Below are positions 2,368 to 28,523 of a stretch of DNA of 32,000 nt, in pieces. The position numbers and the translations under genes are program-made. This DNA comes from Serpentinicella alkaliphila (lineage in GTDB: Bacteria; Bacillota; Clostridia; Peptostreptococcales; Natronincolaceae): contig NZ_CP058648.1 in assembly GCF_018141405.1 (NCBI RefSeq), forward strand, positions 3,141,875-3,173,874, read 5' to 3'. The number at the start of each line of letters is the position of its first letter. Positions within the stretch are counted from its first letter, which is position 1. The notes under the pieces were generated by a model, which saw nothing but the letters and a program-made list of their open reading frames with translations, did no database searches and was not told where the DNA came from.

Positions 2368-4188
2368 TTAATTTAATAATATCCTCATAAACTCTTCTCC
2401 TGTAATTGTCTCTCTTTCTATTAAATATCTTGATAATTGATGGAGTTTATCCATGTTTTCCTTAAGAATATTTATTGCTTTTTCATGGGCTTTCTTTATA
2501 ATTCCAAGTACTTCCTCATCAATTTTTGATGCAGTCTCAGGAGAACAGATTAAAGAAGAATCTCCGCCAAGATACTGATTTGAAACGGTTTCAAGAACCA
2601 TCATATCAAAGTTTCTACTCATACCTAGCCTTGTTACCATCATCCGAGCAATTTTTGTAGCCTGTTCAATATCATTCGAAGCCCCAGAAGTATATGTTCC
2701 AAATACTAATTCCTCTGCAGCCCGACCACCTGTGAAAGTTGTAATTTTATTAAAAGCTTCTTCCTTAGTCATCAGAACATTTTCTTCCTGAGCAACTTGC
2801 ATAGTATATCCAAGGGCTCCGGATGTTCGAGGTACTATTGTAATTTTGTGTACCGGTGCTGATTCCATCTGTTTAGCTGCAACAATTGCATGACCAATTT
2901 CATGATATGCTATTATTTGTTTCTCCTTAGGTGAAATAACGGCTCCCTTTCGTTGGTATCCAGCTATAACAACCTCTACGGCTTCCTCTAAATCACTTTG
3001 AATAACATAGTTGCGACCACACCTTACTGCTCTTAAGGCACCTTCATTAATAATATTTGCTAACTCAGCTCCAGATGCTCCAGAGGTTGCCCTAGCTATC
3101 CCATTAAAATCAACATCACTATCGAATTTTATTTTTTTTGCATGTACTTTTAAAATAGACTCTCTACCTACTAGGTCAGGTAATTCTACAGGAACACGTC
3201 TATCAAATCGTCCCGGCCTTAGCAAAGCCTTATCCAAAGATTCCGGTCTATTTGTAGCTGCAAGTATTACTACTCCCTTTTCACCACTAAACCCATCCAT
3301 TTCTGTTAATAACTGATTTAAGGTCTGCTCCCTTTCATCGTTTCCACCTAACCCACCATTATCACGTTTTTTACCAATTGTATCAATTTCATCTATAAAG
3401 ATTATACATGGGGCTTTTTCCTGAGCCTGCTTGAATAGATCCCTAACTCTTGCAGCACCCATACCAACAAACATCTCTACAAATTCAGAACCTGATATAG
3501 AAAAGAATGGTACCTTCGCTTCACCTGCTACAGCCTTCGCTAGTAGAGTTTTTCCTGTGCCAGGAGGCCCTACTAATAAGGCACCCTTTGGCATAATAGC
3601 CCCAATCTCTTTAAATTTAGTTGGATTATTTAGAAAATCTACAATTTCACTCAAGGCTTCCTTTGCTTCGTTCTGTCCTGCCACATCTGAAAATGTTTTC
3701 CCTGTCTGTGCTTCTACGTAAACTTTTGCATTACTTTTACCAAAGCCCATCACATTGTTAGTGCCCATCATCTTTTGTAGTGGCTTTGTAATCATTTGTA
3801 CAATGGCAACAAATAATAATATTGGGAAAATCCAAGTTAAAATAAAATTTACCAAAGGTGAGTTTTGTTTCGGAATTACCTTAGAGAACTGTATATCTGC
3901 GTTATAAAGGCGGTTTACTAGATCCGGATCATCTACTCGCCCTGTCATAAATATCTGTTCCTCTCCTAGTTCATTTTCAATAATGTATGCAATTTGATTA
4001 TCTTGAATTTCAGCCGTACTTATATTTCCTTTTTCTATTTCCATTAGGAAAGTACTATAATCCACTTGAGTCACATTCTTTTTAAATATAAATGGGAAAA
4101 CAAATGCATTTAAAAGCAATACCATTATTATTGTTGTAATATAGAAATACACTATAGGTTTTTTTTGATTATTTTTTTCTTTGCTCAT
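2368..4188 (-). CDS. ftsH: ATP-dependent zinc metalloprotease FtsH
   Basis: 606 aa with two N-terminal TM helices. Motifs seen: Walker A GPPGTGKT, Walker B IIFIDEID, second region of homology, zinc site [17 protein letters not shown] lies upstream of the ATG. Confidence 0.97.
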
Positions 4189-4269
4189 GTTCTAACCCCC
4201 TTACTGAGAATTCATATTAGCCTTTTCTAAACCAAGTACGAATCACCTTATATTTTTTTATATACCATA

Positions 4270-4290
4270 AATATGAACTCAATATGAACA
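4270..4290 (-). promoter_or_regulatory. Direct-repeat operator-like element, copy B (minus strand TGTTCATATTGAGTTCATATT)
   Basis: Near-identical to copy A and located 82-102 nt upstream of the ftsH ATG. A TGgTATATA extended -10-like sequence follows 18 nt after the first TTCATA. Confidence 0.45.
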
Positions 4291-4383
4291 TGCTTTTATA
4301 ATTAGTGCCCCCGTCCGTAACTCTTTTTTTTTTACTCTATCTTTAGTTTGGTGAATATAATATATTATTCCTACTGTTTTGTT

Positions 4384-4412
4384 GGTTCATATTTCGGGTA
4401 GATATTTATAAT
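4384..4412 (+). promoter_or_regulatory. Candidate sigma-A promoter of the nqr operon
   Basis: Perfect TATAAT at 4407-4412. There is only a weak -35 (GGTTCA/GTTCAT) at 16-17 nt. An alternative TATAAT sits at 4356-4361 with an even weaker -35. Confidence 0.35.
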
Positions 4413-4444
4413 ATCTTATTAATATTGTGGGGGAGTGAGTGTTT

Positions 4445-5404
4445 ATGTCTTTTCTTAACAGAGTATTTATTAAGCAAATTTTAATGAGAAAGGTAATATA
4501 TAGCTTAATACCAATTATCATAATTTCAACCTACTATTTTGGCCTAAGGGCAATTGTTTTAATGTCGGTTACCACAGTATTTGCAATTATTACTGAATTT
4601 TTATTTGAAAAAAGATTAAACAAAAAGGTAAGTGAGGCTGTTATAGTAACTAGCATCTTATTTACGCTAACTTTACCTGTATCTACTCCTTTTTGGGTAG
4701 CTATTGTAGGTATTATTTTTGGTGTTGTTTTTGCTAAAGAGGTTTTTGGTGGTTTTGGAAGAAATATATTTAATCCAGCACTAGTAGGAAGAACTTTTTT
4801 ATACGTTTGTTTCCCAGAGTATTTAACTATTCAATGGAATTCCCCCTCAATTAATTTTCCAGGAGGTTTTTCTACATACCTAACCCCTTCAATTGATACT
4901 GTAACAAGGTCTACCCCCTTAATAACCTTTGCACAGACAGGCGAATTGGTTCCACTAAAAAACCTTTTTTGGGGTAATATTTCAGGTTCATTAGGTGAAA
5001 CTAGCGCAATTTTAATAATATTAGCTGGTATTTATTTAATATATACTAAAGCAGCGGATTGGCGATTAATGGTATCTCCAATTTTAGGTTTTATGAGCCT
5101 AAATACAATTATATATTTCTCAAATGTAACTTCAATTCCTAACCCGATATGGAGCCTTTTATCCGGCAGTATCATATTTATTTCTGTCTTCTTTGCTACC
5201 GAACCAATTACTGCTCCTAAAACTACTGAAGGTAAATGGATATACGGGACTTTAATTGGTTGTATAACCTTACTAATTAGAATATATGGTATTTTCGTAG
5301 CTGGTGGCATGTTCGCAGTTTTAATAATGAATACCTTTGCACCTATACTAGATGAGGGTATTAAGTTTTATAAAGGCTCTAGAAGTAGGAAGGTGATAGC
5401 ATGA
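4445..5404 (+). CDS. nqrB: Na+-NQR subunit B-type protein (NqrB/RnfD family), N-terminally short
   Basis: Motifs seen: VTSILFTL, AKEVFGGFGRNIFNPALVGR, GSLGETS, FFATEPITAP, MFAVLIMNTFAPILD. I prefer the ATG at 4445 (SD GGGGGAG 4429-4435, 9-nt spacing) over the track GTG at 4439. Confidence 0.85.
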   Translation: MSFLNRVFIKQILMRKVIYSLIPIIIISTYYFGLRAIVLMSVTTVFAIITEFLFEKRLNKKVSEAVIVTSILFTLTLPVSTPFWVAIVGIIFGVVFAKEVFGGFGRNIFNPALVGRTFLYVCFPEYLTIQWNSPSINFPGGFSTYLTPSIDTVTRSTPLITFAQTGELVPLKNLFWGNISGSLGETSAILIILAGIYLIYTKAADWRLMVSPILGFMSLNTIIYFSNVTSIPNPIWSLLSGSIIFISVFFATEPITAPKTTEGKWIYGTLIGCITLLIRIYGIFVAGGMFAVLIMNTFAPILDEGIKFYKGSRSRKVIA

Positions 5405-6015
5405 AAAAATTTAGTCTTAAACCAGTTGTTTTTATGTTTATCCTGACTTTAGTATTTACTCTTGTTCTTTCAACCCTTAATCATGTTACTAAAGATAAAA
5501 TCATGTTAAACGAACTAGTAAAGCAGCAAGCCTCGTTCCTATATGTCTTAAATTTTGATGCTTCAACATTAGACGCAGAAACTATAAATCTGTTATACAA
5601 TGATCATATAAATGAAATTAAGGTCAATGACTTTACACTATATGAAGCATATGAAGATAATAGATTAATCGCATATATACTACCTATTGAAGGAAAAGCA
5701 GTATGGGGTGATCTAAGGGCGTTAATGGCATTAACCCCTGACTTTTCAGAGGTTATAGGTATAGATATCTTGTCTCATAGTGAAACTCCTGGTCTTGGCG
5801 CCAGAATAGATGACATTTCTTTTAAGGAGCAATTTAGGGGAATTAATCTTAATAGAGAAAATGATTTGAATTTCATTATTTACAACCCAAATCCTAATGG
5901 CCAAGTTGATGCAATTTCTGGTGCTACAGGAACATCTAATGCCTTAAGAAGAATTCTAAACGAAAACCTTTATAATTTTTTCGAACATATAAAGGAGGGA
6001 CTAAAAAATGACTAA
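5401..6015 (+). CDS. nqrC: Na+-NQR subunit C-type FMN-binding protein (NqrC/RnfG family)
   Basis: The ATGA start/stop overlaps nqrB. It has an N-terminal TM anchor, HSETPGLGA, and the covalent-FMN motif DAISGATGTS (5908-5928). Confidence 0.85.
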   Translation: MKKFSLKPVVFMFILTLVFTLVLSTLNHVTKDKIMLNELVKQQASFLYVLNFDASTLDAETINLLYNDHINEIKVNDFTLYEAYEDNRLIAYILPIEGKAVWGDLRALMALTPDFSEVIGIDILSHSETPGLGARIDDISFKEQFRGINLNRENDLNFIIYNPNPNGQVDAISGATGTSNALRRILNENLYNFFEHIKEGLKND

Positions 6016-6685
6016 GGAAATAGGTAAAATCTTTTATATTGGTATGTTAAAGGATAATCCAGTATATAGACAGATTTTAGGTATCTGCTCTGCTTTAGCT
6101 GTCACTAACCTTATGATAAACTCATTATTTATGAGTTTAGGTCTTATATTTGTTGCTTCCTTTTCAAGTCTAACGGTATCAATGATTAGACAGCATATAC
6201 CTAGGCATATTAGAATGATGGTGCAAACTCTAATTATTTCAGCATATGTAATTATAGTTGATATTATCCTTCGAGCATATTTTCCATCCATGAGTATAGC
6301 TTTAGGTCCATATGTTGGGTTAATAATTACAAACTGTATTATAATGGGCAGATGTGAATCCTTTGCACAGAACAACAAACCTTTGGCATCTTTTTTCGAT
6401 GGTATGGCCGCAGGTTTAGGTTATATGACAGTTCTATTAACTGTAGCCTTCTTTAGGGAGTTTCTTGGATTTGGAACAATTTTTGGAATAGCTGTGGTTG
6501 GGGACTGGTGGACTAATTGGATATTTATGATAATGCCTCCAGGAGCATTCTTTATGCTTGGTATTTTAATATGGGTTGCTAATTCCTTTATTCCAACTAA
6601 GGAGCAAGATAAAGAAATAGAAATTAAGCCTATAGATATAAATAAAGCTTCACAAGAGACTGTCGTACCAGGAGGTGCCAATTAA
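6008..6685 (+). CDS. nqrD: Na+-NQR subunit D
   Basis: Motifs LGICSALAVT, GLIITNCIIMGRCESFA, FDGMAAGLGY and FFREFLGFG closely resemble Vibrio NqrD rather than RnfE. SD is GGAGGG. It carries an extra hydrophilic C-terminal tail of about 25 aa. Confidence 0.9.
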   Translation: MTKEIGKIFYIGMLKDNPVYRQILGICSALAVTNLMINSLFMSLGLIFVASFSSLTVSMIRQHIPRHIRMMVQTLIISAYVIIVDIILRAYFPSMSIALGPYVGLIITNCIIMGRCESFAQNNKPLASFFDGMAAGLGYMTVLLTVAFFREFLGFGTIFGIAVVGDWWTNWIFMIMPPGAFFMLGILIWVANSFIPTKEQDKEIEIKPIDINKASQETVVPGGAN

Positions 6686-7272
6686 TGAGCGATATTAATC
6701 CTTTAGTAATACTTATGGCTTCAATTTTTACTAACAACATGATATTATCAAATTTTCTAGGTATGTGTTCCTTTATTGCAGTTTCAAATGAAATTAAAAC
6801 TTCTATTGGACTTGGGCAGGCAGTAACTTTTGTACTTGGAGCTACTTCAATTATTAATTACATTATATATAAATATCTACTTGTTCCATACAATCTAGAG
6901 TATTTAAGATATATTGTCTTTATAATAACAATAGCTGCGTTTGTTCAACTAGTCGAGATGGTCGTTGAGCGATATGCTCCGACATTATATTATTCCCTTG
7001 GAATATTTTTACCTCTGATTACAGTTAATTGTGCAATCCTCGGAGTATCACTATTTATGATAATTAGAAGCTACTCACTTATTCAATCATTTTTCTTTGG
7101 TATTGGTTCAGGTTTAGGGTGGACCTTAGCTATCGTTGCAATGGCAGGTATTAAACAGAAAATTAAAAATTCACCTATTCCTAAGGGATTACAAGGCCCC
7201 GGCATTACATTAATCATTACTGGTTTAATGGCTCTAGCCTTTATTGGTTTTTCTGGAATTGTAAAGATATAG
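6685..7272 (+). CDS. nqrE: Na+-NQR subunit E
   Basis: NqrE-type signatures: FLGMCSFIAVS, LGIFLPLITVNCAILG, GIGSGLGWTLAIVAMAGIKQK, GITLIITGLMALAF. SD is GGAGGTG. Confidence 0.9.
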   Translation: MSDINPLVILMASIFTNNMILSNFLGMCSFIAVSNEIKTSIGLGQAVTFVLGATSIINYIIYKYLLVPYNLEYLRYIVFIITIAAFVQLVEMVVERYAPTLYYSLGIFLPLITVNCAILGVSLFMIIRSYSLIQSFFFGIGSGLGWTLAIVAMAGIKQKIKNSPIPKGLQGPGITLIITGLMALAFIGFSGIVKI

Positions 7273-7289
7273 TAGAGGAGTGATATATA

Positions 7290-8387
7290 ATGTCCAGTAT
7301 ATTTGTAACCGTATTTATAATTACTACTATTGCTACAGTTCTAGCTTTATTACTTACCCTAGCAAACTACTATATCGCTGACTATGGAGAGCGAAAAATA
7401 GTTATTAACAACGATAAAGAACTTTATGTAGAGGGCGGTACTACTTTGCTTTCATCCTTAATAAGTAATGAAATATTTATACCTTCTGCCTGTGGTGGCA
7501 AAGGAAATTGTGGCTATTGTAAATGTAAGGTTGAAGAAGGCGGGGGGCCTATTTTAGCGACAGAATTATCCTATTTATCTGAAGATGATAAAAACTGTAA
7601 TATTCGTCTATCATGCCAAGTTAAGGTAAAAGAAAATATGAAAATAGAAATACCTGAGGAGTTATTCAACGTTAAGCAATATAATGTAGTTGTTGAGTTT
7701 GCACGGGATGTTACACCTACTATTAAATATTTAAGATTAGCAATATGTGAAGATAAGGAAATACAATTTAGAGCAGGACAATATATACAGCTACTAGCCC
7801 CTCCCTATGCGGACAGTAATGAAGATGTTTTTAGAGCCTACTCCATAGCCTCTCAATCAACTACAAATAAATATATTGAATTACTAATAGGTTATGTACC
7901 AGACGGAATCGTAACCACTTATGTCCACAAACACCTAACCAAAGGTGATAAAGTTACTTTTAATGGTCCCTATGGTGATTTTTATTTATCCGATTCGGAC
8001 TGCGATATTGTCCTTGTAGCTGTAGGAACAGGAATGGCACCAATTCGAAGTATTTTGCTTGATATAAAAGATAAGAAAATAAGCCGTAATGTTATCTTTT
8101 TCTTTGGTGCTAGGACAGAAGATGATTTATTTATGATTGATGAAATGAAAAGACTTGAAGAAGAGCTTCCACAATTCACATTTGTCCCTACATTATCTAG
8201 ACCTGATAAAAATAGTTGGAATGGCGAGGTTGGAAGAGTTACTGACATGATTGATAAATACTTAGAATATAAAGAGGGAAGGGAAGCCTATCTTTGTGGA
8301 AATGGGCCTATGATTAAATCAACGGTCAACCACTTAATAGATAAGGGTTTCTCTGAAGACAACATTTATTATGATAGTTTTGATTAA
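7290..8387 (+). CDS. nqrF: Na+-NQR subunit F (TM anchor + 2Fe-2S ferredoxin + FAD/NADH oxidoreductase)
   Basis: N-terminal TM helix, then the cluster CGGKGNCGYCKC...C. FAD site RAYSIAS and NAD site VGTGMAPIRS are present, along with YLCGNGPMI. SD is GAGGAG. Confidence 0.88.
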   Translation: MSSIFVTVFIITTIATVLALLLTLANYYIADYGERKIVINNDKELYVEGGTTLLSSLISNEIFIPSACGGKGNCGYCKCKVEEGGGPILATELSYLSEDDKNCNIRLSCQVKVKENMKIEIPEELFNVKQYNVVVEFARDVTPTIKYLRLAICEDKEIQFRAGQYIQLLAPPYADSNEDVFRAYSIASQSTTNKYIELLIGYVPDGIVTTYVHKHLTKGDKVTFNGPYGDFYLSDSDCDIVLVAVGTGMAPIRSILLDIKDKKISRNVIFFFGARTEDDLFMIDEMKRLEEELPQFTFVPTLSRPDKNSWNGEVGRVTDMIDKYLEYKEGREAYLCGNGPMIKSTVNHLIDKGFSEDNIYYDSFD

Positions 8388-8401
8388 CAACTATAAAAAG
8401 G

Positions 8402-8429
8402 TAATCCCTCATAAATACATGGGGGATTA
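8402..8429. terminator. Bidirectional terminator between nqrF and the helicase gene
   Basis: TAATCCCTCAT / ATGGGGGATTA forms an 11-bp stem (one G-U pair) with a 6-nt loop. It is flanked by AAAAAGG upstream and TCTTT downstream. Confidence 0.55.
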
Positions 8430-8447
8430 TCTTTACTCAAATATATT

Positions 8448-9665
8448 TTACAATTTTTTACTATCTGTACTATACTTCTTATTTGATAATGTCTTCTTAT
8501 ATATGGACTCTTTCTTCCTATTAATAATGTCTTCCACTACTTTAATTTTTCCATTTATTATACTAATTTCAACTACATCAATATTTAATTTCTTCATCAT
8601 CTTAAACATAATAAACTTTTCTCTATCTCTAACTATATTGTAGACCTGGCCCTTTTTGTTCATTCTACCCGTTCTTCCAGCTCTATGTAAGTAATCTACA
8701 GGATTTAATGGTAAGTCCATATTAAATATATGCGATACATCACTAAAATCCATTCCCCTTGTAAATAGATCTGTTGTCACTAAAATTTTAAGCTTTCCAT
8801 TATTAAATGTAGTAAGAATATGCTGTCTATCTTGGTTATTTGTTCTAGTTTGTATGCCACCCACAGACAGTCCATAGGATTTTAGCTCTTTTACAAATCT
8901 ATCAACGTTTTCATTCTTATTAATGAAGACTAAAGATTTAGTTGGTTTCAATACTTCGATAAGCTCAGATAGTGTTTCAGTTTTTTTCGGAGCAGTGCTA
9001 ACAATATGAAAATGCTTTATGCCAGTTGGAACAGGCTTTGCATTGTCTAAAGAAATATACTTAGGGTCTTTCATTATTGAATTTAGTATATCCAAAGCAT
9101 CTTTTGAAAGTGTTGCTGAAAAACTTACAACTTGTCTATCTTTTAAAGTCGAATCAATAATTGAATGAACCTTTTCCCTAAACCCTTGTTCAAGAATTTG
9201 ATCCACCTCGTCTAAGGCAATAATTTTAACACCATGCACCTTTAATTTTTTAAGTCCTATAATATGTAATAATCTACCTGGGGTAGCTACTATAATCTGT
9301 GGCTTATCCTTTAATTTATCAAGTTGTCTATTAATTTCCATTCCTTCTAATATAGTCACTGAACTTATATTTGTACCTTTAATAACACTTTCAATTTCTC
9401 TATTTATTTGAAGGCTTAGCTCTCTACTTGGAGCTAATACTAACATCTGTAGCTCTTTTTTTTCAGGATCTATTTTCTCAATCATTGGTATTAAATAAGC
9501 TAGGGTTTTACCAGTTCCTGTTTTAGCTTTCCCTATTACATCTTCTCCATCTAAAATTTTAGGTATAGCGGCCTCTTGAATCTCAGTTGGATCAATTTTT
9601 TCTTCCCTCTCTAAATTATCTACTATAAAATTTTTGATATTAAAATCTTTAAATTTTTTACTCAC
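8448..9665 (-). CDS. DEAD-box ATP-dependent RNA helicase (motif II reads DEVD)
   Basis: Motifs seen: AKTGTGKT, PSRELS, TPGRL, DEVD, SAT, HRAGRTGR. GTG start with AAGGAG 10 nt upstream. Confidence 0.93.
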   Translation of the reverse strand: MSKKFKDFNIKNFIVDNLEREEKIDPTEIQEAAIPKILDGEDVIGKAKTGTGKTLAYLIPMIEKIDPEKKELQMLVLAPSRELSLQINREIESVIKGTNISSVTILEGMEINRQLDKLKDKPQIIVATPGRLLHIIGLKKLKVHGVKIIALDEVDQILEQGFREKVHSIIDSTLKDRQVVSFSATLSKDALDILNSIMKDPKYISLDNAKPVPTGIKHFHIVSTAPKKTETLSELIEVLKPTKSLVFINKNENVDRFVKELKSYGLSVGGIQTRTNNQDRQHILTTFNNGKLKILVTTDLFTRGMDFSDVSHIFNMDLPLNPVDYLHRAGRTGRMNKKGQVYNIVRDREKFIMFKMMKKLNIDVVEISIINGKIKVVEDIINRKKESIYKKTLSNKKYSTDSKKL

Positions 9666-10780: not shown

Positions 10781-11722
10781 CTATTCCTCCATCACAGACT
10801 TATTTCTAGATCCAACAAAAATAGTTATTGCATTTAAGATTATTATTATGGTTATTAAAACAACTGAAGCTCCAAAGGCTAGCTCTGGCATATCTCCTTC
10901 ACCTGCAGGAGAATTATAGTAAATATAAGTAGTTAATGTAGATCCAGTATTTTTTAATGTACTCATCCAGTTTTGTGGTTGATACCATGGTTGGTTTCCT
11001 GTCATCCTCAGAGTTCCCCCTAGAAGTAACCAAACTATAGCGGTATCACCAATCATCCTACCCATACCCAAAATAACAGAAGTTACTATTCCATTACTAG
11101 CACTCGGTAATACAACGTTCACAATTGTATCCCATTTTGAAACCCCTAAAGCCAAGGAAGCTTCTCTATATGATTTCGGAACTGATTTGATAGCTTCCTC
11201 GCATGTTTTTATTACAAAAGGTAATATCATAATTGCCATAGCAAAGCTACATACTAAAAATGATTTACCAAAGGCTCTCGTTACACCTTCGACACCTTCT
11301 ACCATTGAACTTAAAAATCCTAACTGAGGCCTAGTAAATATTGCTACTCCAAAAATTGCAATTACAATAGTAGGTATTCCGGCTAAAATATCAATTGACG
11401 TTCTAAAAAAATTGTTCACTAAATTATCCATCGCATATTCTGAAAGATAAATTGCTGTAGATAAAGCCCAGGGTAAAGCTATAATTATTCTGAGTATTGT
11501 AATTATAAATGTTCCTACAATTGGAGTTAGAATACCTCCTGCTTTGCTAATGTCTACTGCTGTTGCCCCTGGATCTGTTGTTAAAAACTGTAGATTAATT
11601 ACACTGTATCCATTGATAAATAGAAAAACAATAATTCCTATGCATCCAGCAACAGTTATTAATGAAGATCCCAAAGCAAAATATTGTTGGATGTAGTCAA
11701 AAACCCTTCTCCTATTAGACAA
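10781..11722 (-). CDS. pstA: Phosphate ABC transporter permease PstA
   Basis: 313-aa polytopic permease with the EAA-like loop YREASLALGVSKWDTIVNVVLP. Its start overlaps the pstC end by 8 nt. Confidence 0.9.
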   Translation of the reverse strand: MSNRRRVFDYIQQYFALGSSLITVAGCIGIIVFLFINGYSVINLQFLTTDPGATAVDISKAGGILTPIVGTFIITILRIIIALPWALSTAIYLSEYAMDNLVNNFFRTSIDILAGIPTIVIAIFGVAIFTRPQLGFLSSMVEGVEGVTRAFGKSFLVCSFAMAIMILPFVIKTCEEAIKSVPKSYREASLALGVSKWDTIVNVVLPSASNGIVTSVILGMGRMIGDTAIVWLLLGGTLRMTGNQPWYQPQNWMSTLKNTGSTLTTYIYYNSPAGEGDMPELAFGASVVLITIIIILNAITIFVGSRNKSVMEE

Positions 11723-12688
11723 GTCCCTGCCTCCTTTTTACAATTCTCTCGATAACTTTTGCTGAAATACTTAGTATAGATGTTGTAATTAATAATAAAA
11801 CCCCACAGCCAAATAAAGCTGATTCTATGCTCTGTACCGCAATAGCTTCTGATTTATTTACTATAGCAGATGCTAAAGGTAAAACGTGTGTTAAGAAAAA
11901 TACGCTTCCATGTAAAGGATTAGGTAATACACCTAAACTACCAGCAACCATGAACATAGCAATTGCTTCTCCAATGGCCCTTCTTGTTCCTAGAATTACA
12001 CCAGCAATAATACCTGATTTTGCAGAAGGTGATACTACTTAACTATTGTACGCCATTTCGATAGCCCTAGGGCTAAGGAAGCCTCTCTATATTTATGAGG
12101 AACTGCTTTAATTGCATCAGCCGAAAGTGCGGTTATTATCGGTATAATCATAAATGTTAGTACTATTATTCCAGCTAACATACTTCGTCCAGTTAGTTGA
12201 AAATATTCTAAATATTCAATTTGCATTTGAACATTCATAAATTTCTCTCTTGCAAAAGGTACTACAACTATTAATCCAACTAATCCAAATATAATAGATG
12301 GTATACCTGCTAATAGTCTAACAATAGATAGAATCATCTTTTTAATAGAACCATTAGACATCTCACTAATAACAATTGCTGTTCCAACTCCCATAGGTAC
12401 TGATATAAGTAAGGCACCTAAAGTTGTGGTTATTGAACCTACTAAAAGACTAAGTGCCCCAAATTCCCACACAGGCTCACTAGATAATGCATTAAATGCA
12501 TTTACTATTTGTGTATCAAAGCCAGTTTTAGTTACAAATCCTAAACCATTTACTAAAAAAACCTTTGATGCCTTCTGTAAAATAAATATAAATATAAAAA
12601 TTACCATTGCTGCGCTAAATAAAGTAAAGAGAAAAATAAGCTTTTCAAAGACAAGTTCTCTTATTTTATCTAACTTTAATGTATTCAA
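11715..12688 (-). pseudogene. pstC: pstC (phosphate ABC permease) interrupted by a 1-nt frameshift near 12038-12041
   Basis: The 217-aa N-terminal ORF ends ...YREASLALGLSKWRTIVK-stop. The next frame opens at 12038 and reads VVSPSAKSGIIAGVILGTRRAIGEAIAMFMVAGS..., which is the expected continuation. One extra base after AAG would restore a single ORF. Confidence 0.8.
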
Positions 12689-12854: not shown

Positions 12855-13566
12855 TTATGGTAAGCTTATAAAATCTTCACTATCAATTATTTTTTTACCT
12901 GTAGGAGAAGTGAAGAAATCTATTAATTTAGCTGTTACACCACTCGGTCTTCCTTTTGTACAGATTACTAGAGGTTGTACAATTGGATATTTTTTGTTTA
13001 ATGCATTTTCCACTGTTGCCTCAATACCATTTACAGTAAGAGTATTAATGCTGTTATCAACATGACCGAATGATAAGAAACCAATAGCGTTTACTTCCTT
13101 AGCTACTGCTTGCTTCACAGCTGGGTTAGAAGTGTGTGGTGTTGCTGTGGCAATAACTTGTTGACCTTTTTGAATTTTATCAAGAGCAAGCTCAACAAAT
13201 GCTCCTAATGTTCCTGAACCTGATTCTCTTGTTTGAACAAAGATCGGCGCATTGTTTCCACCTACTTCACTCCAATTATTTACTTTACCTGTGAATATAT
13301 CAAATATCTGTTGTTGAGTTAGGTTTTTAACTGGGTTGTTTTTATGTACAACGATTGCAATACCATCTTTGCCTATTACCAGAATTTAATTTCATTAAAT
13401 GATCTGCCGAAGCTTGTGATATAGGTTGTAGTGTTGTTGAACCACCAATTTTAACTGTACCATTCATATCTGTAAAGTAATTAACTTCTACGGAACGAGT
13501 ACTTTCCTTCCAATCTACCTTTGCCCCAACCGCCTCAGCAATTAAAAATTTACCACCAATGTACAT
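12855..13566 (-). pseudogene. pstS: pstS (phosphate-binding protein) remnant: no signal peptide, internal deletion plus frame change
   Basis: Fragment 1 (13566-13342) reads ...GTVKIGGSTTLQPISQASADHLMKLNSG and then runs out of frame. Fragment 2 is open from 13385 to 12855 and reads VIGKDGIAIVVHKNNPVKNLTQQQIFDIFTGKVNNWSEVGG...TRESGSGTLGAF.... The expected first GGSGTG phosphate-binding segment between the two fragments is absent. A stop codon lies 3 codons upstream of the first Met. Confidence 0.75.
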
Positions 13567-14247: not shown

Positions 14248-14366
14248 TAGCTAATAATTACCGATAGTTAATATGCCCTTCTCGATGTTATTATTATTTA
14301 AGTTAAATTTATATTACAAATATTAATTTAAATTGTAACAACTAATATTTCCTAAGGAAGGTGCAA

Positions 14367-15839
14367 ATGAGCTCAAATTTTAAATTAAATTTAGTTAACA
14401 AATCAGAAAGGATTTATTTTTTTCTTTCCCTATTAATAAGTATTATTTTATACATCTTTGTTTTCACTTCAATAAATGCTTTTATTATACTTTTTTTAAT
14501 TACTCTATTGTCAGCATTATATATGGCTAATATACGCATTAATGGGGTACGCATTAGTAGTCATCAATTTCCTGCGGTATATGAAAAAACAAAAGAACTA
14601 TGTGAATTAATGGAAATAAAAAAGATACCTGATATATTTGTAATCCAGTCAGGTGGAGTATTAAATGCATTCGCAACTCGTTTTTTTGGTAAAAATATGG
14701 TTGTGCTGTACTCTGAAATTTTTGATCTAATTGACTCTTCAGATGAAAATGTTTTATCATTTATTCTTACCCATGAGCTAGCACATATTAAAAGAAATCA
14801 CATTACTAAACAAGCATTAATACTACCTGCAATGTGGGTTCCTTTTCTAGGAAAAGCATATTCTAGAGCCTGTGAATATACTTGTGACCGTATGGCTGCC
14901 CACTACATCAATGACCCTGAGGCAGCTATGGAAGGGCTAACAATGCTAGCCATTGGGAAGACCTTGTTTAAACAAGTTAATAGAGAAGAGTATTTACATC
15001 AAAGTAGCAACGAAAAGGGGCTATTTACATTTTTTGCAGAAAAGCTTTCTACACACCCAACATTGCCAAAGAGGATTAATAAAATCGAGCTATTCTTTAA
15101 TGGTTCATCAAAAACAGTATTCAAGACTACTCCTAAAGTAGTTATTTCTATTGTTTTACTGTCTATATTAATGTCTACACTAGGTGGAGTAGGTTTCTAC
15201 TATGCTGATGAAATAAAAGAAAGCATAAATACGTTTTTTCCAAACTTCTATTCTAACGACGATTTTATAATTTTAATTGAAGCTGTTGTTGCAGGGGATA
15301 CAGATGAAGTTAAATCTATTTTAGAATCAAGAATTAATCCTGACATCGTAGATTCAGAAGGCTGGACACCACTTATGTGGGCAACTCAGCTTAATGATTT
15401 AGATATGATAAATCTATTTATTGAATATGGGGCTGATCCAAATAAAATAGACTACTATTATGAGGAAACTGCTTTAATAATTGCTCTTACTAATGATTAT
15501 GTTGAAGCTATAGCAGCTTTACTTGAAGCTGGTGCAGATCCAAATCTTTCTGATTCATATGGTTGGACTCCTTTAATGAGTGCAGTTTCAAACGATAATT
15601 CTAAAAATATAAGAATTTTATTAGAAGCTGGAGCTGACCCTAATGTATCAAATATCTATGGCTATACCCCTTTAATGAGTGCATCTTCAAAAGGTAATTT
15701 AGAAGCTGCTAGAGAGTTATTGGAATTTGGTGCTATAACAGATATTAGAGATGATGATAAATTCACAGCATTTTTATATGCAAAAAAATCAAAACACAAT
15801 GACATAGCGGATCTAATAAAGATGTATGAAAAAAACTAA
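14367..15839 (+). CDS. M48-family zinc metallopeptidase fused to C-terminal ankyrin repeats
   Basis: Two N-terminal TM helices, then the HELAH zinc motif (14772-14786) and the STHPTLPKRI C-terminal M48 signature. A further TM helix (VVISIVLLSILMSTLGGVGFYYA) follows, then 5-6 ankyrin repeats (GWTPLMWA...GADPN, GWTPLMSA...GADPN, GYTPLMSA...). I prefer the ATG at 14367 (AAGGAAGG upstream) over the track GTG at 14361. Confidence 0.85.
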   Translation: MSSNFKLNLVNKSERIYFFLSLLISIILYIFVFTSINAFIILFLITLLSALYMANIRINGVRISSHQFPAVYEKTKELCELMEIKKIPDIFVIQSGGVLNAFATRFFGKNMVVLYSEIFDLIDSSDENVLSFILTHELAHIKRNHITKQALILPAMWVPFLGKAYSRACEYTCDRMAAHYINDPEAAMEGLTMLAIGKTLFKQVNREEYLHQSSNEKGLFTFFAEKLSTHPTLPKRINKIELFFNGSSKTVFKTTPKVVISIVLLSILMSTLGGVGFYYADEIKESINTFFPNFYSNDDFIILIEAVVAGDTDEVKSILESRINPDIVDSEGWTPLMWATQLNDLDMINLFIEYGADPNKIDYYYEETALIIALTNDYVEAIAALLEAGADPNLSDSYGWTPLMSAVSNDNSKNIRILLEAGADPNVSNIYGYTPLMSASSKGNLEAARELLEFGAITDIRDDDKFTAFLYAKKSKHNDIADLIKMYEKN

Positions 15840-20375: not shown

Positions 20376-22979
20376 TTAGATTATACCCTGTTCTATACTT
20401 TTATGCTCACATTGACAGGTAAATTTTAATTGCTCTATATTAAAATTTGAGTTTGCAAGAATTTCTGGCCAAATCTTAATAACCTCATATACTTTATTTT
20501 TTTTCTCTTCAGGAAGCATATCCCATGTTACAAATGCTGGGTCAGTTTTATCCTTATAGCTTTTTACTTCACCATAACTCCAACCGGCATCTTTTCTATG
20601 TAAATACCATCTAGTATGCTCGTATTCAGCTAAGCTCTCTAATTCCACTTGGGTAAATTCTTTAACTTGGGGTTTGTCTTTAACGGAGGTTATATCGTAA
20701 TTAATTCTTAATAGTGCCTCTGGAATATGTTTAACCTCATCACGATTACAATCCTTAAGATCCTCGCTTAACTCATGCCAAGGTTTAATAAAGTTTTCAT
20801 CGTAATCTATGTTGTCTTTGTTAAGAGACCTATATTTATCATGAATAGCTATCGCAATACTTTCTATCTTTTCGCTATAGAATGCATCATGCATCATATG
20901 TCTTAAAAATTGCTCTTCATCCACATGTAACTTAAGTTGTTCCCTTGCAGGTAGTAAGGATTGCTCCCACTTCCTAGCTTGAGTTAGCATACTCATTTCT
21001 AAAATGGCTTCCATAGATCTAGACTCATGTTTATATCTTGGGACCTTAAGTAAAGCCCGTAATACTCCATTATCAATTTGCGCTTCTCCATGTTCATTTA
21101 TTAAATGAGGTACTTTTCTTTCTAATAAAGACCTTAATAACATGGCTCTTCTTATAATATATAGTTGATCACCCATCGTATCATCCGTTGGATTAACACC
21201 TAATATATTTACATAACCTCTAAGACGACTTACGAAATCTGGACCCTTAGCAGTTTTGAAATAAGAATTAAATTGTTTTTGATCATTTTCATCTAAAATA
21301 CCTTTTCCACAAAATTCTTTAAAGGTGCTACTGGTACCGCCAGCAAAAACTAGAATTACTTTTCCGATTGAGTGTGTAGCCTCACCTTCTCTAAATACAC
21401 CATCTTGCATAGGAGCTAAAAAGTATTTTAACCAACCTAATTTACCATCAAAGGAGGAATCAAATTCATCTAAAATTACTAGAGGTATTCTACCCTTTAA
21501 AGAATAGTCCCTAACCCTATGGAAGGCATTTATTAAATCCGAAGGAGAGCGGAATTGTGATAAATTATAGTCTAATTTTTTAATTAATTTTGGGGCAATA
21601 CTTGAGGCTATTTCCGTTACTCCAAATGACTTTCCTGAACCTGGAGTACCAAATACTGCAATCGATAAAGGTCTAACTGTATTTTTTGTAGATATGTATT
21701 CCCATATTAAGTTTTTGATAGATCTGTAGCTCTCTATTTCAATTCTGTCTACGGTTTTTAAGTTTCCAAACTGAGCAATTGGTATGAAATTCAGAACCTT
21801 TTCTTCACCATTTTTAACTATATCATAGGCTATTCCAGCTAAATTCGTAGAGCTTTTATCTTTCAGTATATACCAACAGGAAGGACAGTTTATATTAGTA
21901 GAACATGGTATTCTTACATCCTGCACATGTTTCTTCTTAATTATGTTAGATTTATCCTCTATAAAAACAGCGGGATTTGGGAAAGGAGTCTCCTCCACAT
22001 TTTTTCCAAAGCCTTCAATAAAATATTTATGTGCATTTACCATACCCTGACGTATACCATCATTAATGGATATAGCTAAAAGCTCTTTTTTTGCATTATC
22101 TACTACAATACTTTGAGCAAGTCCTGCAACAAAGGATGAAGTAAGTCCATACATTCTACCTTGATTTTCATTTACTAGGCCACCCTCAAACTCGTAAGGA
22201 AGAAAATATAAGCGGGACTCAGTAATTCTATCATTTCTATAATAGATAGCCCCTTCAAGTCCAAATGGAACTACAAGATGGTGACATTTTGCTAGAAAGG
22301 CTAAATTAGGATTATTCTCAATTTGCCATAAAAAATTTTGAGCTGTTTTTTCCCATGAAAGACTTTTACTTATATTTACACCTTTTGATCGTAGATCATC
22401 AGCATTTATAATAACTATAGTATTTTCTAAATGATTACTTTCTAGATGCTTCCATAGATTACTAGATCCGTTAGGGTTATTAAGCTTGTATAAAACTATT
22501 GGGGCTTTTCCTAATGTTTTAATTGCCAAAGGCCAATACTCCACATTTAGATTAAAGCCGTTGTTTTCATCGTCTATAATAACAAGATCAGCATTTTCAT
22601 CATCCTTAATAATTGGAAGGAGCTTTGAGTTTGAAGCAGTAGGCCCAGTAAATCCTAGAAAACGACTTACTCTATATACCTTTTCTTTGCTTCTACCATC
22701 AGTATACTTACTAAAAAGGCTAAGTTCAGCAGTGGATCTAAGAAATTCCCTAGATAAAGTCTGTTCAATGTCATCAATTTTTGGAGAAAGGACACAGGCT
22801 CCAGTTGATAAGGACACTAGTTCAGAAAGTAGTAAAGACTCCCCTGGTTTTAAGATGCTATGCATATTTAAATGTGTTTGCCAATTAAAACCTTCACTGT
22901 TCTGTGGATATGTTATCCATTGAAGTGAATTAATACAAATATCCCCTGTTACTACAATTTTGATATCTTTGCTATCCAT
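20376..22979 (-). CDS. Large multidomain protein: N-terminal about 340-aa domain (ribokinase/PfkB-like?), AAA+ ATPase core, two C-terminal RyR-type repeats
   Basis: Walker A GTPGSGKS (aa 444-451; nt 21627-21650) and Walker B PLVILDEFD (aa 499-507). A MoxR-like segment reads FLAPMQDGVFREGEATHSIGKVILVFAGGT. The RyR repeats read IAIAIHDKY...PWHELSEDLKDCNRDEVKHIP and LAEYEHTRWYLHRKDAGWSYGE...DPAFVTWDMLPEEKKNKVYEVI. SD AGGAGG lies 7 nt before the ATG. Confidence 0.85.
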   Translation of the reverse strand: MDSKDIKIVVTGDICINSLQWITYPQNSEGFNWQTHLNMHSILKPGESLLLSELVSLSTGACVLSPKIDDIEQTLSREFLRSTAELSLFSKYTDGRSKEKVYRVSRFLGFTGPTASNSKLLPIIKDDENADLVIIDDENNGFNLNVEYWPLAIKTLGKAPIVLYKLNNPNGSSNLWKHLESNHLENTIVIINADDLRSKGVNISKSLSWEKTAQNFLWQIENNPNLAFLAKCHHLVVPFGLEGAIYYRNDRITESRLYFLPYEFEGGLVNENQGRMYGLTSSFVAGLAQSIVVDNAKKELLAISINDGIRQGMVNAHKYFIEGFGKNVEETPFPNPAVFIEDKSNIIKKKHVQDVRIPCSTNINCPSCWYILKDKSSTNLAGIAYDIVKNGEEKVLNFIPIAQFGNLKTVDRIEIESYRSIKNLIWEYISTKNTVRPLSIAVFGTPGSGKSFGVTEIASSIAPKLIKKLDYNLSQFRSPSDLINAFHRVRDYSLKGRIPLVILDEFDSSFDGKLGWLKYFLAPMQDGVFREGEATHSIGKVILVFAGGTSSTFKEFCGKGILDENDQKQFNSYFKTAKGPDFVSRLRGYVNILGVNPTDDTMGDQLYIIRRAMLLRSLLERKVPHLINEHGEAQIDNGVLRALLKVPRYKHESRSMEAILEMSMLTQARKWEQSLLPAREQLKLHVDEEQFLRHMMHDAFYSEKIESIAIAIHDKYRSLNKDNIDYDENFIKPWHELSEDLKDCNRDEVKHIPEALLRINYDITSVKDKPQVKEFTQVELESLAEYEHTRWYLHRKDAGWSYGEVKSYKDKTDPAFVTWDMLPEEKKNKVYEVIKIWPEILANSNFNIEQLKFTCQCEHKSIEQGII

Positions 22980-27243: not shown

Positions 27244-28523
27244 TTATATAATGTTACTCATTACTTTGTCCGCGGCTTCTATTGTCCTAGCTATATCTTC
27301 CTCTGTATGAGCATAGGATATGAACATAGCTTCAAACTGAGATGGTGACATATATATACCCTGTTCTAGCATACCTGTAAAAAATTCCACATATAAATTC
27401 GTATTACTGCTCATTGCACTTTCGAAATCTACTACCTCTTTATCCGTAAAGAAAGTTGTAAGCATTGAACCAACCCTATTAACCACTGCTTGAATATTAT
27501 ACTTTTTAGCAATGTCCCTGAAGCCAGTCTCTAACATTAGCCCAAGTCTATCAATATGCTCGTATATTTCGGGTTTACTCTTTAAAATACTCAATGTAGT
27601 TATTCCCGCTGACATTGCCAATGGGTTCCCAGAAAGAGTTCCAGCCTGATATATAGGTCCTGCAGGTGAAATTTGCTCCATTATTTCTCATAGGCTCCCA
27701 CTGGTAAGCCACCCCCTATAATTTTACCGAAGCAAGTTATATCAGGTTCAATACCATACACGCTCTGAGCGCCACCATATGCCACTCTAAAACCAGTCAT
27801 AACCTCATCTATTATTAGCAGTGCCCCATACTCTTTAGTTATACTTCTAAGGTATTCCATAAAATCTTTACGGGCAGCTACCACTCCCATATTGCCAGCT
27901 ATTGGTTCTATTATTACTGCAGCAATGTCTTTACCATATTCACTAAATATGTCTTTAATACTTTGCGTATCGTTATACCTTGCGGTTAGTGTGTTTTTAC
28001 TTACGTCAGCTGTAACTCCAGGACTGTCAGGTACTCCATGAGTTAATGCTCCGGATCCTGCCTTTACAAGTAAACTGTCCGTATGTCCATGATAGTTACC
28101 ACTAAATTTAACAATTTTATTTCTTCCTGTAAACCCTCTAGCAAGTCTTAGGGCACTCATAACTGCCTCTGTTCCTGAGTTTACCATTCTTACCATATCA
28201 ACTGAAGAAACTGCCTCACATATAAGTTTTGCCATTTCCAGTTCTTTCAAAGTTGGTGCTCCATAGGTTGTTCCTTTTCTTGCAGCCTCCGTTATTGAAT
28301 TAATAACCTGTTCATTTCCATGGCCAAGTATAAGTGGACCCCAGGAGCCTATATAATCAATATATTCCTTTTCATCTTCGTCGATAATGTGACTTCCTTT
28401 TCCTTCTTTTATAAAGGGTGGGGTTACAGTTGTTCCCCTAAAAGCTCTTACAGGGCTATTTACTCCACCAGGTATGAACTTTTTACTCTCCTCAAATAAT
28501 TTAACAGAATTACTACCTACCAT
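27244..28523 (-). pseudogene. hemL: Glutamate-1-semialdehyde 2,1-aminomutase (hemL) split into 280-aa and 145-aa ORFs at a TAATG overlap
   Basis: ORF1 ends ...[17 protein letters not shown]-stop (PLP lysine present). ORF2 begins MEQISPAGPIYQAGTLSGNPLAMSAG. The usual GG(K/R)x between GAY and EIM is missing, and the frames differ. The frame-overlap window is 27687-27690. Confidence 0.85.

Follow-up and report, generated by a model that had tools for sequence, protein, structure and literature searches.

Can an enzyme of the Na+-NQR (Nqr) type do without its cap subunit, NqrA? The question is raised by a 32,000-nucleotide stretch of the Serpentinicella alkaliphila genome (contig NZ_CP058648.1, positions 3,141,875 to 3,173,874), hereafter the window, meaning the whole of this 32 kb, on whose six-frame translation our homolog searches were run. 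It holds an operon, nqrBCDEF, with neither nqrA nor an RnfC-like gene, and the B subunit lacks the N-terminal arm that fixes such a cap to the membrane core. We think it probable that the five gene products make up a membrane redox complex that is complete in itself and belongs to the NqrF-bearing (Nqr) lineage, and whose electron path and ion pumping would resemble those of its homologs. The five genes are as follows.

4445-5404, + strand: B subunit (NqrB/RnfD family), 319 amino acids; PF03116, 285.7 bits; no N-terminal arm
5401-6015, + strand: C subunit (NqrC/RnfG family), 204 amino acids; PF04205; N-terminal transmembrane (TM) anchor and FMN_bind domain
6008-6685, + strand: D subunit (NqrD-like), 225 amino acids; PF02508; NqrD model best
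6685-7272, + strand: E subunit (NqrE/RnfA family), 195 amino acids; PF02508
7290-8387, + strand: F subunit (short NqrF), 365 amino acids; PF00111, PF00970 and PF00175

An earlier reading of the letters alone (the sequence-only reading) had described five co-directional, tightly packed or overlapping open reading frames (ORFs), and all were found on the plus strand: B overlaps C by 4 nucleotides (nt), C overlaps D by 8 nt and D overlaps E by 1 nt, with a gap of 17 nt between E and F. Every motif quoted in that reading was present in the translations. The five subunits are intact, translationally coupled and typical of their families. C had been called a TM-anchored FMN_bind protein, as PF04205 confirms, and the last gene an NqrF with a TM helix and 2Fe-2S, FAD and NADH sites; its three Pfam domains (Fer2, FAD_binding_6 and NAD_binding_1) and conserved ligands agree, giving a TM helix, a 2Fe-2S ferredoxin domain and an FNR-like domain for flavin adenine dinucleotide (FAD) and NADH. 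An assembly artefact was rejected, as an independent assembly yields identical gene calls: gene calling done independently on the public S. alkaliphila assembly gave the same five products (319, 204, 225, 195 and 365 amino acids), and F matches, at 100% identity, the protein annotated by NCBI as NqrF in S. alkaliphila (Natronincolaceae, Peptostreptococcales).

The claim that no NqrA/RnfC-like or RnfB-like gene exists at the locus is upheld by searches of the window. A profile built from four NqrA/RsxC references and RnfC-like proteins of relatives, run together with 11 single queries, found no match in its six-frame translation even at E <= 1, and single queries with RsxB, ApbE and NqrM found none there either. 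Relatives were gathered by a pattern scan with one genome per species, which returned at least 598 stretches encoding relatives of F, and the best 80 were examined. The B-C-D-E-F order is complete in 68 of these 80 loci, the rest being cut by contig ends except for one divergent locus, L080, and it spans Clostridia, Spirochaetes, Acholeplasmataceae/Izimaplasma, Planctomycetes, Cloacimonadota and others; the same order occurs in Fusobacteria and Pseudothermotoga. Where at least 1500 nt could be read upstream of B, 46 of 54 loci have no A- or C-type gene, and the other eight carry a cofactor-type RnfC gene. Published genome analyses agree: they describe this cluster in Clostridium ultunense, P. 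lettingae and P. thermarum, report that none of the three genomes contains an nqrA, and give the first two a separate, complete rnfCDGEAB cluster each (PMC5924567, PMC4148951).

An nqrA directly upstream in close relatives, which had been named as the sign of a rearrangement, was not seen: the A-less cluster recurs beside differing neighbours. In the A-less loci closest to the window these neighbours are unrelated housekeeping genes (MatE, RelA/SpoT-like, PpiC-like, ribosomal protein S4, glycosyltransferase and SDR genes border the window-type clusters), and recent local rearrangement is therefore ruled out. An assembly or rearrangement artefact at the junction with ftsH, the gene upstream, was rejected on the same evidence, the capless unit recurring in 46 loci with differing neighbours. 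No conserved partner gene was found beside window-type clusters; a gene for an [FeFe]-hydrogenase-like Fe-S protein neighbours the cluster in L001 only, and apbE, whose product is required for the flavinylation of B and C, lies near one of the 80 loci.

The second part of the answer lies in B. This subunit had been described as an NqrB of about 319 residues starting just before its first TM helix, and in the AlphaFold2 (AF2) model (pLDDT 78.9) TM1 indeed begins at residue 12, with about 11-12 residues ahead of it. A GGGGAG ribosome-binding site at 4430-4435 precedes the ATG at 4445 by 9 nt; the sole earlier in-frame start is a GTG at 4439, two codons upstream. A mis-called start hiding a longer B was rejected, since 4439 is the first possible start after the upstream stop and the maximal ORFs of relatives are equally short. 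The model overlays RnfD over its full length (Foldseek TM-score 0.79-0.83; root-mean-square deviation of 1.9 Å from C. tetanomorphum RnfD, 7zc6_D) and superimposes on the core only of the longer NqrB.

Across the relatives, 56-57 residues precede the TM1 anchor in three canonical NqrB references read at full length and 56-61 in the hybrids that combine RnfC with NqrF, against typically 13-17 in A-less B, where the number reaches at most 41 even in maximal ORFs. A conserved arm segment, FKPV..A.D.F.F...PH..D..D.KR, is present in canonical NqrB and in the B of the eight RnfC-bearing loci, and is missing from A-less B. Furthermore, a profile of the arm and the RnfC/NqrA profile match exactly the same eight loci and no A-less locus, so that arm loss tracks cap loss across the eight cap-bearing and all A-less loci examined. 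An apparent outlier in arm length, L066, is actually RnfC-bearing, and a 76-residue N-terminal extension in L002 was set aside as an over-called ORF with no similarity to the arm.

The V. cholerae NqrB, with 415 amino acids, is 96 longer than B of the window, within the roughly 90-100 residues given in the sequence-only reading; however, that reading placed the whole excess at the N-terminus, whose share is only about 45-55 residues, and the remainder is an insertion between TM1 and TM2. This insertion is extracellular in V. cholerae, at residues 75-124 (PMC9588780). Among the NqrB references, those from proteobacteria have a long form of it and Bacteroides a short one. A GG motif aligned to G140/G141 of V. 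cholerae NqrB, which we take to be a site linked to korormicin resistance, is found in the hybrids and in the proteobacterial NqrB references and not in A-less B or RnfD.

That the N-terminal stretch helps to hold NqrA is a point on which the structural papers agree with the earlier note: the arm fixes RnfC or NqrA to the membrane core (PMC9588780, PMC9325719). In RnfD it is fully buried in RnfC, an arrangement likened to the fixation of NqrA by NqrB (PMC9588780), while in V. cholerae NqrB the segment Met1-Lys54 forms the korormicin/aurachin pocket next to the ubiquinone-labelled part of NqrA (PMC9325719). The proposal that joint loss of NqrA and its docking segment marks a genuine five-subunit complex is thus strongly supported by the covariation of arm and cap and by the 46 A-less loci.

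Judged on the window and about 70 homologous loci, the redox machine is otherwise predicted to be intact. In B the attachment site for flavin mononucleotide (FMN), Thr157 in DTVTRSTPL, is conserved across the family, and the corresponding site in C, Thr176 in SGAT, is Thr or Ser in all homologs examined. Cys27 and Cys110 of D and Cys28 and Cys116 of E, the predicted intramembrane 2Fe-2S ligands, are invariant; these four cysteines and the two threonines align at the sequence level with their V. cholerae counterparts. Also conserved are the acidic residues that correspond to NqrB E144, D346 and D397, NqrD D133 and NqrE E95 of V. cholerae, the last being Glu91 in E of the window. F keeps Cys68, Cys74, Cys77 and Cys109 and the R-x-Y-S motif for FAD. 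F proteins of this kind, that of the window included, lack two insertions in the FAD domain of canonical NqrF (about 30 and 13 residues), and in these short-F systems apbE and nqrM are unlinked to the operon.

Are these subunits Nqr or Rnf proteins? By family models the picture is mixed. B scores 230.9 with TIGR01946 rnfD, above the cutoff of 207, and so qualifies as an RnfD-type membrane subunit, while with NqrB NF003756 it scores 224 against a cutoff of 414 in an alignment limited to profile positions 115-392. C is below the cutoff with both nqrC (86.8, cutoff 144) and rnfG (85.6). D scores 230.8 with NqrD NF006777 (cutoff 235) and 164.8 with rnfE TIGR01948, whereas E, just below the cutoff with both, is nearly tied (nqrE 233.9, cutoff 248; rnfA 228.3). 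The best NCBIfam match of F is TIGR01941 nqrF (266, cutoff 295), and none of the five proteins reaches its NCBIfam Nqr equivalog cutoff. Solved structures give the same impression: B matches two RnfD proteins with 154 and 152 bits and NqrB with 148; D matches V. cholerae NqrD with 187 bits and RnfE with 146, 133 and 90; and the best PDB matches of E are A. woodii RnfA (194 bits) and V. cholerae NqrE (190 bits).

D with RnfE and E with RnfA are paralogous families, which is why a joint tree of the D and E halves can use each as the root of the other. This tree (neighbour-joining, 185 columns, 200 bootstraps) included four Rnf references (C. tetanomorphum, A. woodii, A. vinelandii and E. coli) and canonical Nqr references from Vibrio, Klebsiella, Ruegeria and Bacteroides. 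The NqrF-linked systems, namely canonical Nqr, hybrids and A-less forms, exclude the four Rnf references with 99% bootstrap support in D and 90% in E, and canonical Nqr is monophyletic (90% and 88%). The branching order of canonical Nqr, hybrids and A-less forms is poorly supported in the B, C, D and E trees; in the D and E trees the C. ultunense locus groups with the window in a weakly supported group of 22 loci. D and E are therefore on the Nqr side of the Rnf/Nqr split. The earlier assignment of both as Nqr-type rather than Rnf-type is clear by score for D, as it is for F, whereas for E the scores are tied and it is the tree that places it on the Nqr side. Placement of the subunits within Rnf clades was not observed, and the idea that they are nested in Rnf, with RnfB and RnfC supplied in trans, is not supported by the D/E tree or by the missing arm of B.

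Compared with canonical Na+-NQR, the operon shares the NqrF-type input module (TM helix, 2Fe-2S centre, FNR-like FAD/NADH domain), the B-C-D-E-F order, the FMN threonines of B and C, the four cysteines of D and E, and the D/E clade. It differs in having no nqrA, apbE or nqrM; in a B without the ~55-residue arm, the TM1-TM2 insertion and the GG motif; in an F without the two FAD-domain insertions; and in five proteins that fall below the Nqr equivalog cutoffs. Compared with Rnf (RnfABCDGE, ferredoxin:NAD+ oxidoreductase), it has a homologous membrane core and a B of RnfD size, but RnfB and RnfC are missing, NqrF replaces the ferredoxin-input module, B has ~11 residues before TM1 where RnfD has a 20-residue arm buried in RnfC (PMC9588780), and the clade, or grade, that the four Rnf references form does not include D and E. 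The two-subunit NQR/RNF-like systems of Meheust et al. (2021), in which an NqrB/RnfD domain fused to an NAD-binding domain is accompanied by an NqrC-like protein, are likewise reduced Nqr/Rnf derivatives, combining a module that binds NAD(P)H with an extracytoplasmic subunit that is flavinylated (PMC8238504). They lack D, E and a separate F, whereas the window has all five subunits, and their B-like domain has no flavinylation threonine (PMC11334425), whereas the window has both threonines.

The closest counterparts are the A-less nqrBCDEF clusters on which genome papers have remarked, those of Thermotoga thermarum and T. lettingae in 2014 (Theth_1137-1141 and Tlet_0865-0869; PMC4148951), Clostridium ultunense in 2018 (CUESP_0375-0379; PMC5924567) and Candidatus Izimaplasma ZiA1, also in 2018 (PMC6256511). 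These papers commented that NqrA is missing and left the other reaction partner open (PMC4148951, PMC5924567, PMC6256511), and the C. ultunense paper mentions A. metalliredigens as encoding a putative NQR complex (PMC5924567). The missing arm of B went unreported there. One of the closest relatives within the best 80 of at least 598 is the C. ultunense locus itself (L009), whose F is 58% identical, and A. metalliredigens proteins are among the top matches. The operon of the window belongs with this group by its B-C-D-E-F order without an A- or C-type gene, its short armless B and its short F.

One difference from that group is that the window clade lacks a protein, here called X, that many other lineages have, Ilyobacter and the Pseudothermotoga locus examined among them. 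X is a soluble protein of ~150 amino acids whose gene, in many A-less clusters, comes immediately downstream of nqrF and in the same direction. We found it there in 29 loci, in Ilyobacter polytropus and in Pseudothermotoga; of the 51 loci in which both flanks could be read, it occurs in 18 of the 44 that are A-less and in none that bears RnfC. The following are examples.

L081, 9343-9795: X of Ilyobacter polytropus
L088, 4640-5089: X of Pseudothermotoga
L026, 11117-11578: X
L051, 11126-11584: X

At least 809 proteins belong to the family, and every one is annotated as hypothetical. X has no Pfam or NCBIfam match and no significant fold match in the PDB (best Foldseek E = 0.49, from an AF2 model with pLDDT 95.8), and it was not found within 10 kb on either side of the cluster in the window or its 22-locus group. 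X is a candidate sixth subunit or assembly factor.

The eight loci that do have a cap form a distinct hybrid architecture, in the order RnfC-like gene, B with arm and GG motif, C-D-E and short NqrF. Their RnfC-like genes are as follows.

L055, 4711-6243: RnfC-like gene
L058, 4045-5529: RnfC-like gene
L061, 5577-6983: RnfC-like gene
L062, 5497-6987: RnfC-like gene
L066, upstream of 1724: RnfC-like gene
L069, 5562-7061: RnfC-like gene
L071, 5588-7075: RnfC-like gene
L074, 5313-6833: RnfC-like gene

The hybrid cap gene abuts B and encodes 468-510 amino acids with RnfC_N, a Complex1_51K FMN domain and two 4Fe-4S motifs; some of these proteins also give weak NqrA-domain matches. The hosts are Candidatus Anammoxibacter, Planctomycetes, Omnitrophica and a metagenome-assembled genome (MAG) of Tissierellales, and an AhpC/TSA peroxiredoxin gene follows two of the eight hybrids. 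We found no description of such RnfC+NqrF hybrids in the literature searched, and they are candidate intermediates in the proposed path from Rnf to Nqr.

A more divergent relative, L080 (8616-14393, an uncultured Planctomycetaceae MAG), has the order D-E-F-B-C. Its C-like ORF of 727 amino acids contains FMN_bind followed by galactose-binding-like (F5/8 type C) regions that are apparently duplicated; the ORF spans a masked run of N, and its N-terminus is unreliable.

How might a five-subunit enzyme of this kind work? Going by the conserved ligands and by homology to solved Nqr and Rnf structures, NADH would be oxidised at the FAD of NqrF, and single electrons would pass from the 2Fe-2S centre of NqrF to the intramembrane 2Fe-2S centre held by D and E, then across the membrane to the covalent FMN of C at the outer face, and back through the covalent FMN, and probably riboflavin, of B. 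Coupling to export of Na+ (or H+) is presumed, as in Nqr and Rnf. Electrons would finally leave B, or C, to an acceptor requiring neither cap nor arm. This exit step cannot match that of Vibrio Na+-NQR, because the cap and the pocket-forming arm are both gone, nor, with RnfC missing, that of Rnf. Our data do not decide between three options for the acceptor, and we have a weak preference for one of them, a non-canonical acceptor at the uncovered face of B.

Several points weigh against this account of a self-contained Nqr-lineage complex. The proportions of the different architectures come from the best 80 of at least 598 loci, and the remainder may differ. For B, C and E, the Rnf and Nqr models give nearly the same scores. 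The trees are distance-method trees of 185 columns with only four Rnf references, in which nodes within the NqrF-bearing clade are poorly supported. Ion coupling, finally, is presumably retained, by extrapolation from the homologs.

Among the alternatives, the strongest is that the complex is an NADH:(mena)quinone oxidoreductase after all, with NqrA dispensable and the riboflavin of B reducing membrane quinone directly at a site independent of NqrA and the arm. We regard this as unlikely, though it has the best claim of those considered. The core of B is intact, including the FMN threonine and the conserved acidic residues; a polyprenyl synthetase gene follows four of the eight RnfC-bearing hybrids, hinting at an isoprenoid-quinone link in the lineage; and a 2025 review of RNF and NQR puts the quinone in NqrB and assigns NqrA no function (PMC12174285). 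On the other hand, the arm forming the only structurally defined quinone-analog pocket is missing (PMC9325719), and the authors of the C. ultunense study argued for an acceptor more negative than quinone (PMC5924567). The GG motif of V. cholerae NqrB is also missing, and the A-less loci examined have no polyprenyl or quinone gene beside them. To our knowledge, Thermotogae, treponemes, Peptoniphilaceae and Acholeplasmataceae are generally regarded as being without respiratory quinones, which we also count against this explanation.

A one-way electron exporter, passing electrons from NADH to the extracytoplasmic FMN of C (and B) and on to flavinylated reductases or external acceptors such as flavin shuttles, Fe(III) or sulfur compounds, seems to us less likely again. 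Unidirectional action has been proposed for partial NQR/RNF-like systems (PMC8238504, PMC11334425). The hosts include some named as metal reducers (Alkaliphilus metalliredigens, Geosporobacter ferrireducens and Thermotalea metallivorans), a link to metal reduction was already raised in the 2018 C. ultunense paper, and the domain make-up of the C-like protein of L080 suggests an outward-facing role. However, many hosts are not known as metal reducers, and for C. ultunense an acetate oxidation that depends on Fe(III) was ruled out. B, which export through D/E and C would not need, is strictly conserved in its FMN threonine and acidic residues, and neither an extracytoplasmic reductase nor an FMN_bind protein is consistently encoded nearby.

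It is very improbable that the five subunits borrow RnfC, NqrA or another cap encoded elsewhere, for example in the organism's rnf operon, to make a six-subunit complex. Our cap search covered the 32 kb window only, and the separate rnfCDGEAB clusters of C. ultunense and P. lettingae show where such a cap could come from (PMC5924567). Yet B is without the arm that anchors the cap in every solved Rnf or Nqr structure discussed (PMC9588780), the loss of that arm tracks the loss of the cap gene, and the pairing of NqrF, with its NADH site, and RnfC, with its NAD+ site, would set up a futile cycle from NADH to NAD+. A decaying, non-functional remnant of an nqr or rnf operon, to which apparently broken genes elsewhere in the window (hemL and the pst genes) might point, is scarcely credible given five intact ORFs with every ligand conserved, thousands of homologs of the same lengths and a gene order kept across phyla.

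The five-subunit complex is thus the reading that we carry forward, and it can be joined to the hybrids and to X in a wider proposal, which we offer as tentative. The short-F systems would be an ancient sister group of canonical Na+-NQR, in which stages of the way from Rnf to Nqr survive: RnfB would first have been replaced by NqrF, after which the cap either degenerated into NqrA or was lost with the arm of B. The A-less enzyme would be a Na+-pumping NADH dehydrogenase of strict anaerobes, reducing a non-quinone acceptor at the uncovered face of B, and in many lineages it would work with X as a hitherto unrecognised sixth protein of novel fold.

The surroundings of the operon are simple, and consist of the following features.

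2368-4188, - strand: ftsH
4189-4444: divergent intergenic region between ftsH and B, 256 nt
8397-8434: hairpin of 16 bp between the nqrF and helicase stop codons, a likely bidirectional terminator
8448-9665, - strand: DEAD-box helicase gene, converging on nqrF

The upstream arrangement of ftsH followed by a divergent intergenic region is as first described, the region measuring 256 nt where 250 had been given. In 4189-4444 no match to the sigma-70 consensus of at least 9/12 was reported, and the RnfC/NqrA profile finds no remnant there. As to the terminator said to follow nqrF, a consensus terminator scan made no call after the gene, whereas the hairpin at 8397-8434 is unusually stable in RNA folding (dG -21.4 kcal/mol, z = -4.99, 0 of 200 shuffles folding as well); since it sits between nqrF and the convergent helicase gene, the claim is reasonable.

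Elsewhere in the window, hemL (glutamate-1-semialdehyde aminomutase; 27244-28523, - strand) is split into ORFs of 280 and 145 amino acids that meet at 27681. The break reads ...GAYEK* / MEQISPAGP..., where the segment presumably would normally read GAYGGKKEIMEQ; it is consistent with a frameshift, in a pseudogene or through a sequencing error, and the gene sits in an otherwise intact row of hemA-hemL-hemC-cobA/hemD-hemB and cbi genes. Phosphate-transporter genes upstream of pstA/pstB look fragmented (11715-12688 and about 12855-13566, - strand): pstC falls into two ORFs, one of 217 and one of 80 amino acids, and the public gene calls give only a 176-residue PBP_like_2 (PstS-like) fragment. At 14361-15839 (+ strand) a 492-residue protein has, by Pfam, a membrane-anchored peptidase domain of the M48 family with ankyrin repeats fused C-terminally to it, which is unusual in a Firmicute, and an ORF of 867 amino acids at 20376-22979 (- strand) has the P-loop motif GTPGSGKS.

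The A-less architecture is already in the literature, and the novelty of the present findings is limited for that reason. Beyond the remarks in genome papers we found no dedicated study of NqrA-less complexes. A large survey defined NQR by NqrF beside a flavinylation gene (PMC8238504), and under that definition A-less clusters would be counted as ordinary NQR; the 2025 review does not mention them (PMC12174285). Annotation is correspondingly mixed, with PGAP calling B 'RnfD', D 'NqrD' and F 'NqrF' or '2Fe-2S protein'. As far as we have found, our additions to the published record are the breadth of the distribution, the strict covariation of B arm and cap, the short-F signature, a rooted tree with D and E next to canonical Nqr, protein X and the RnfC+NqrF hybrids.

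In conclusion, NqrA carries no cofactor, and a natural, widespread enzyme free of it is a ready test of the purpose of the cap, and also of where the last electron-transfer step of Nqr-type pumps occurs. The loss of arm and cap removes the known pocket for quinone-analog inhibitors, and a different acceptor may therefore be used. If that is true, fermentative and alkaliphilic anaerobes, in which sodium cycling is central to energy conservation, would possess in the A-less enzyme an NADH-oxidising ion pump that has gone unrecognised.

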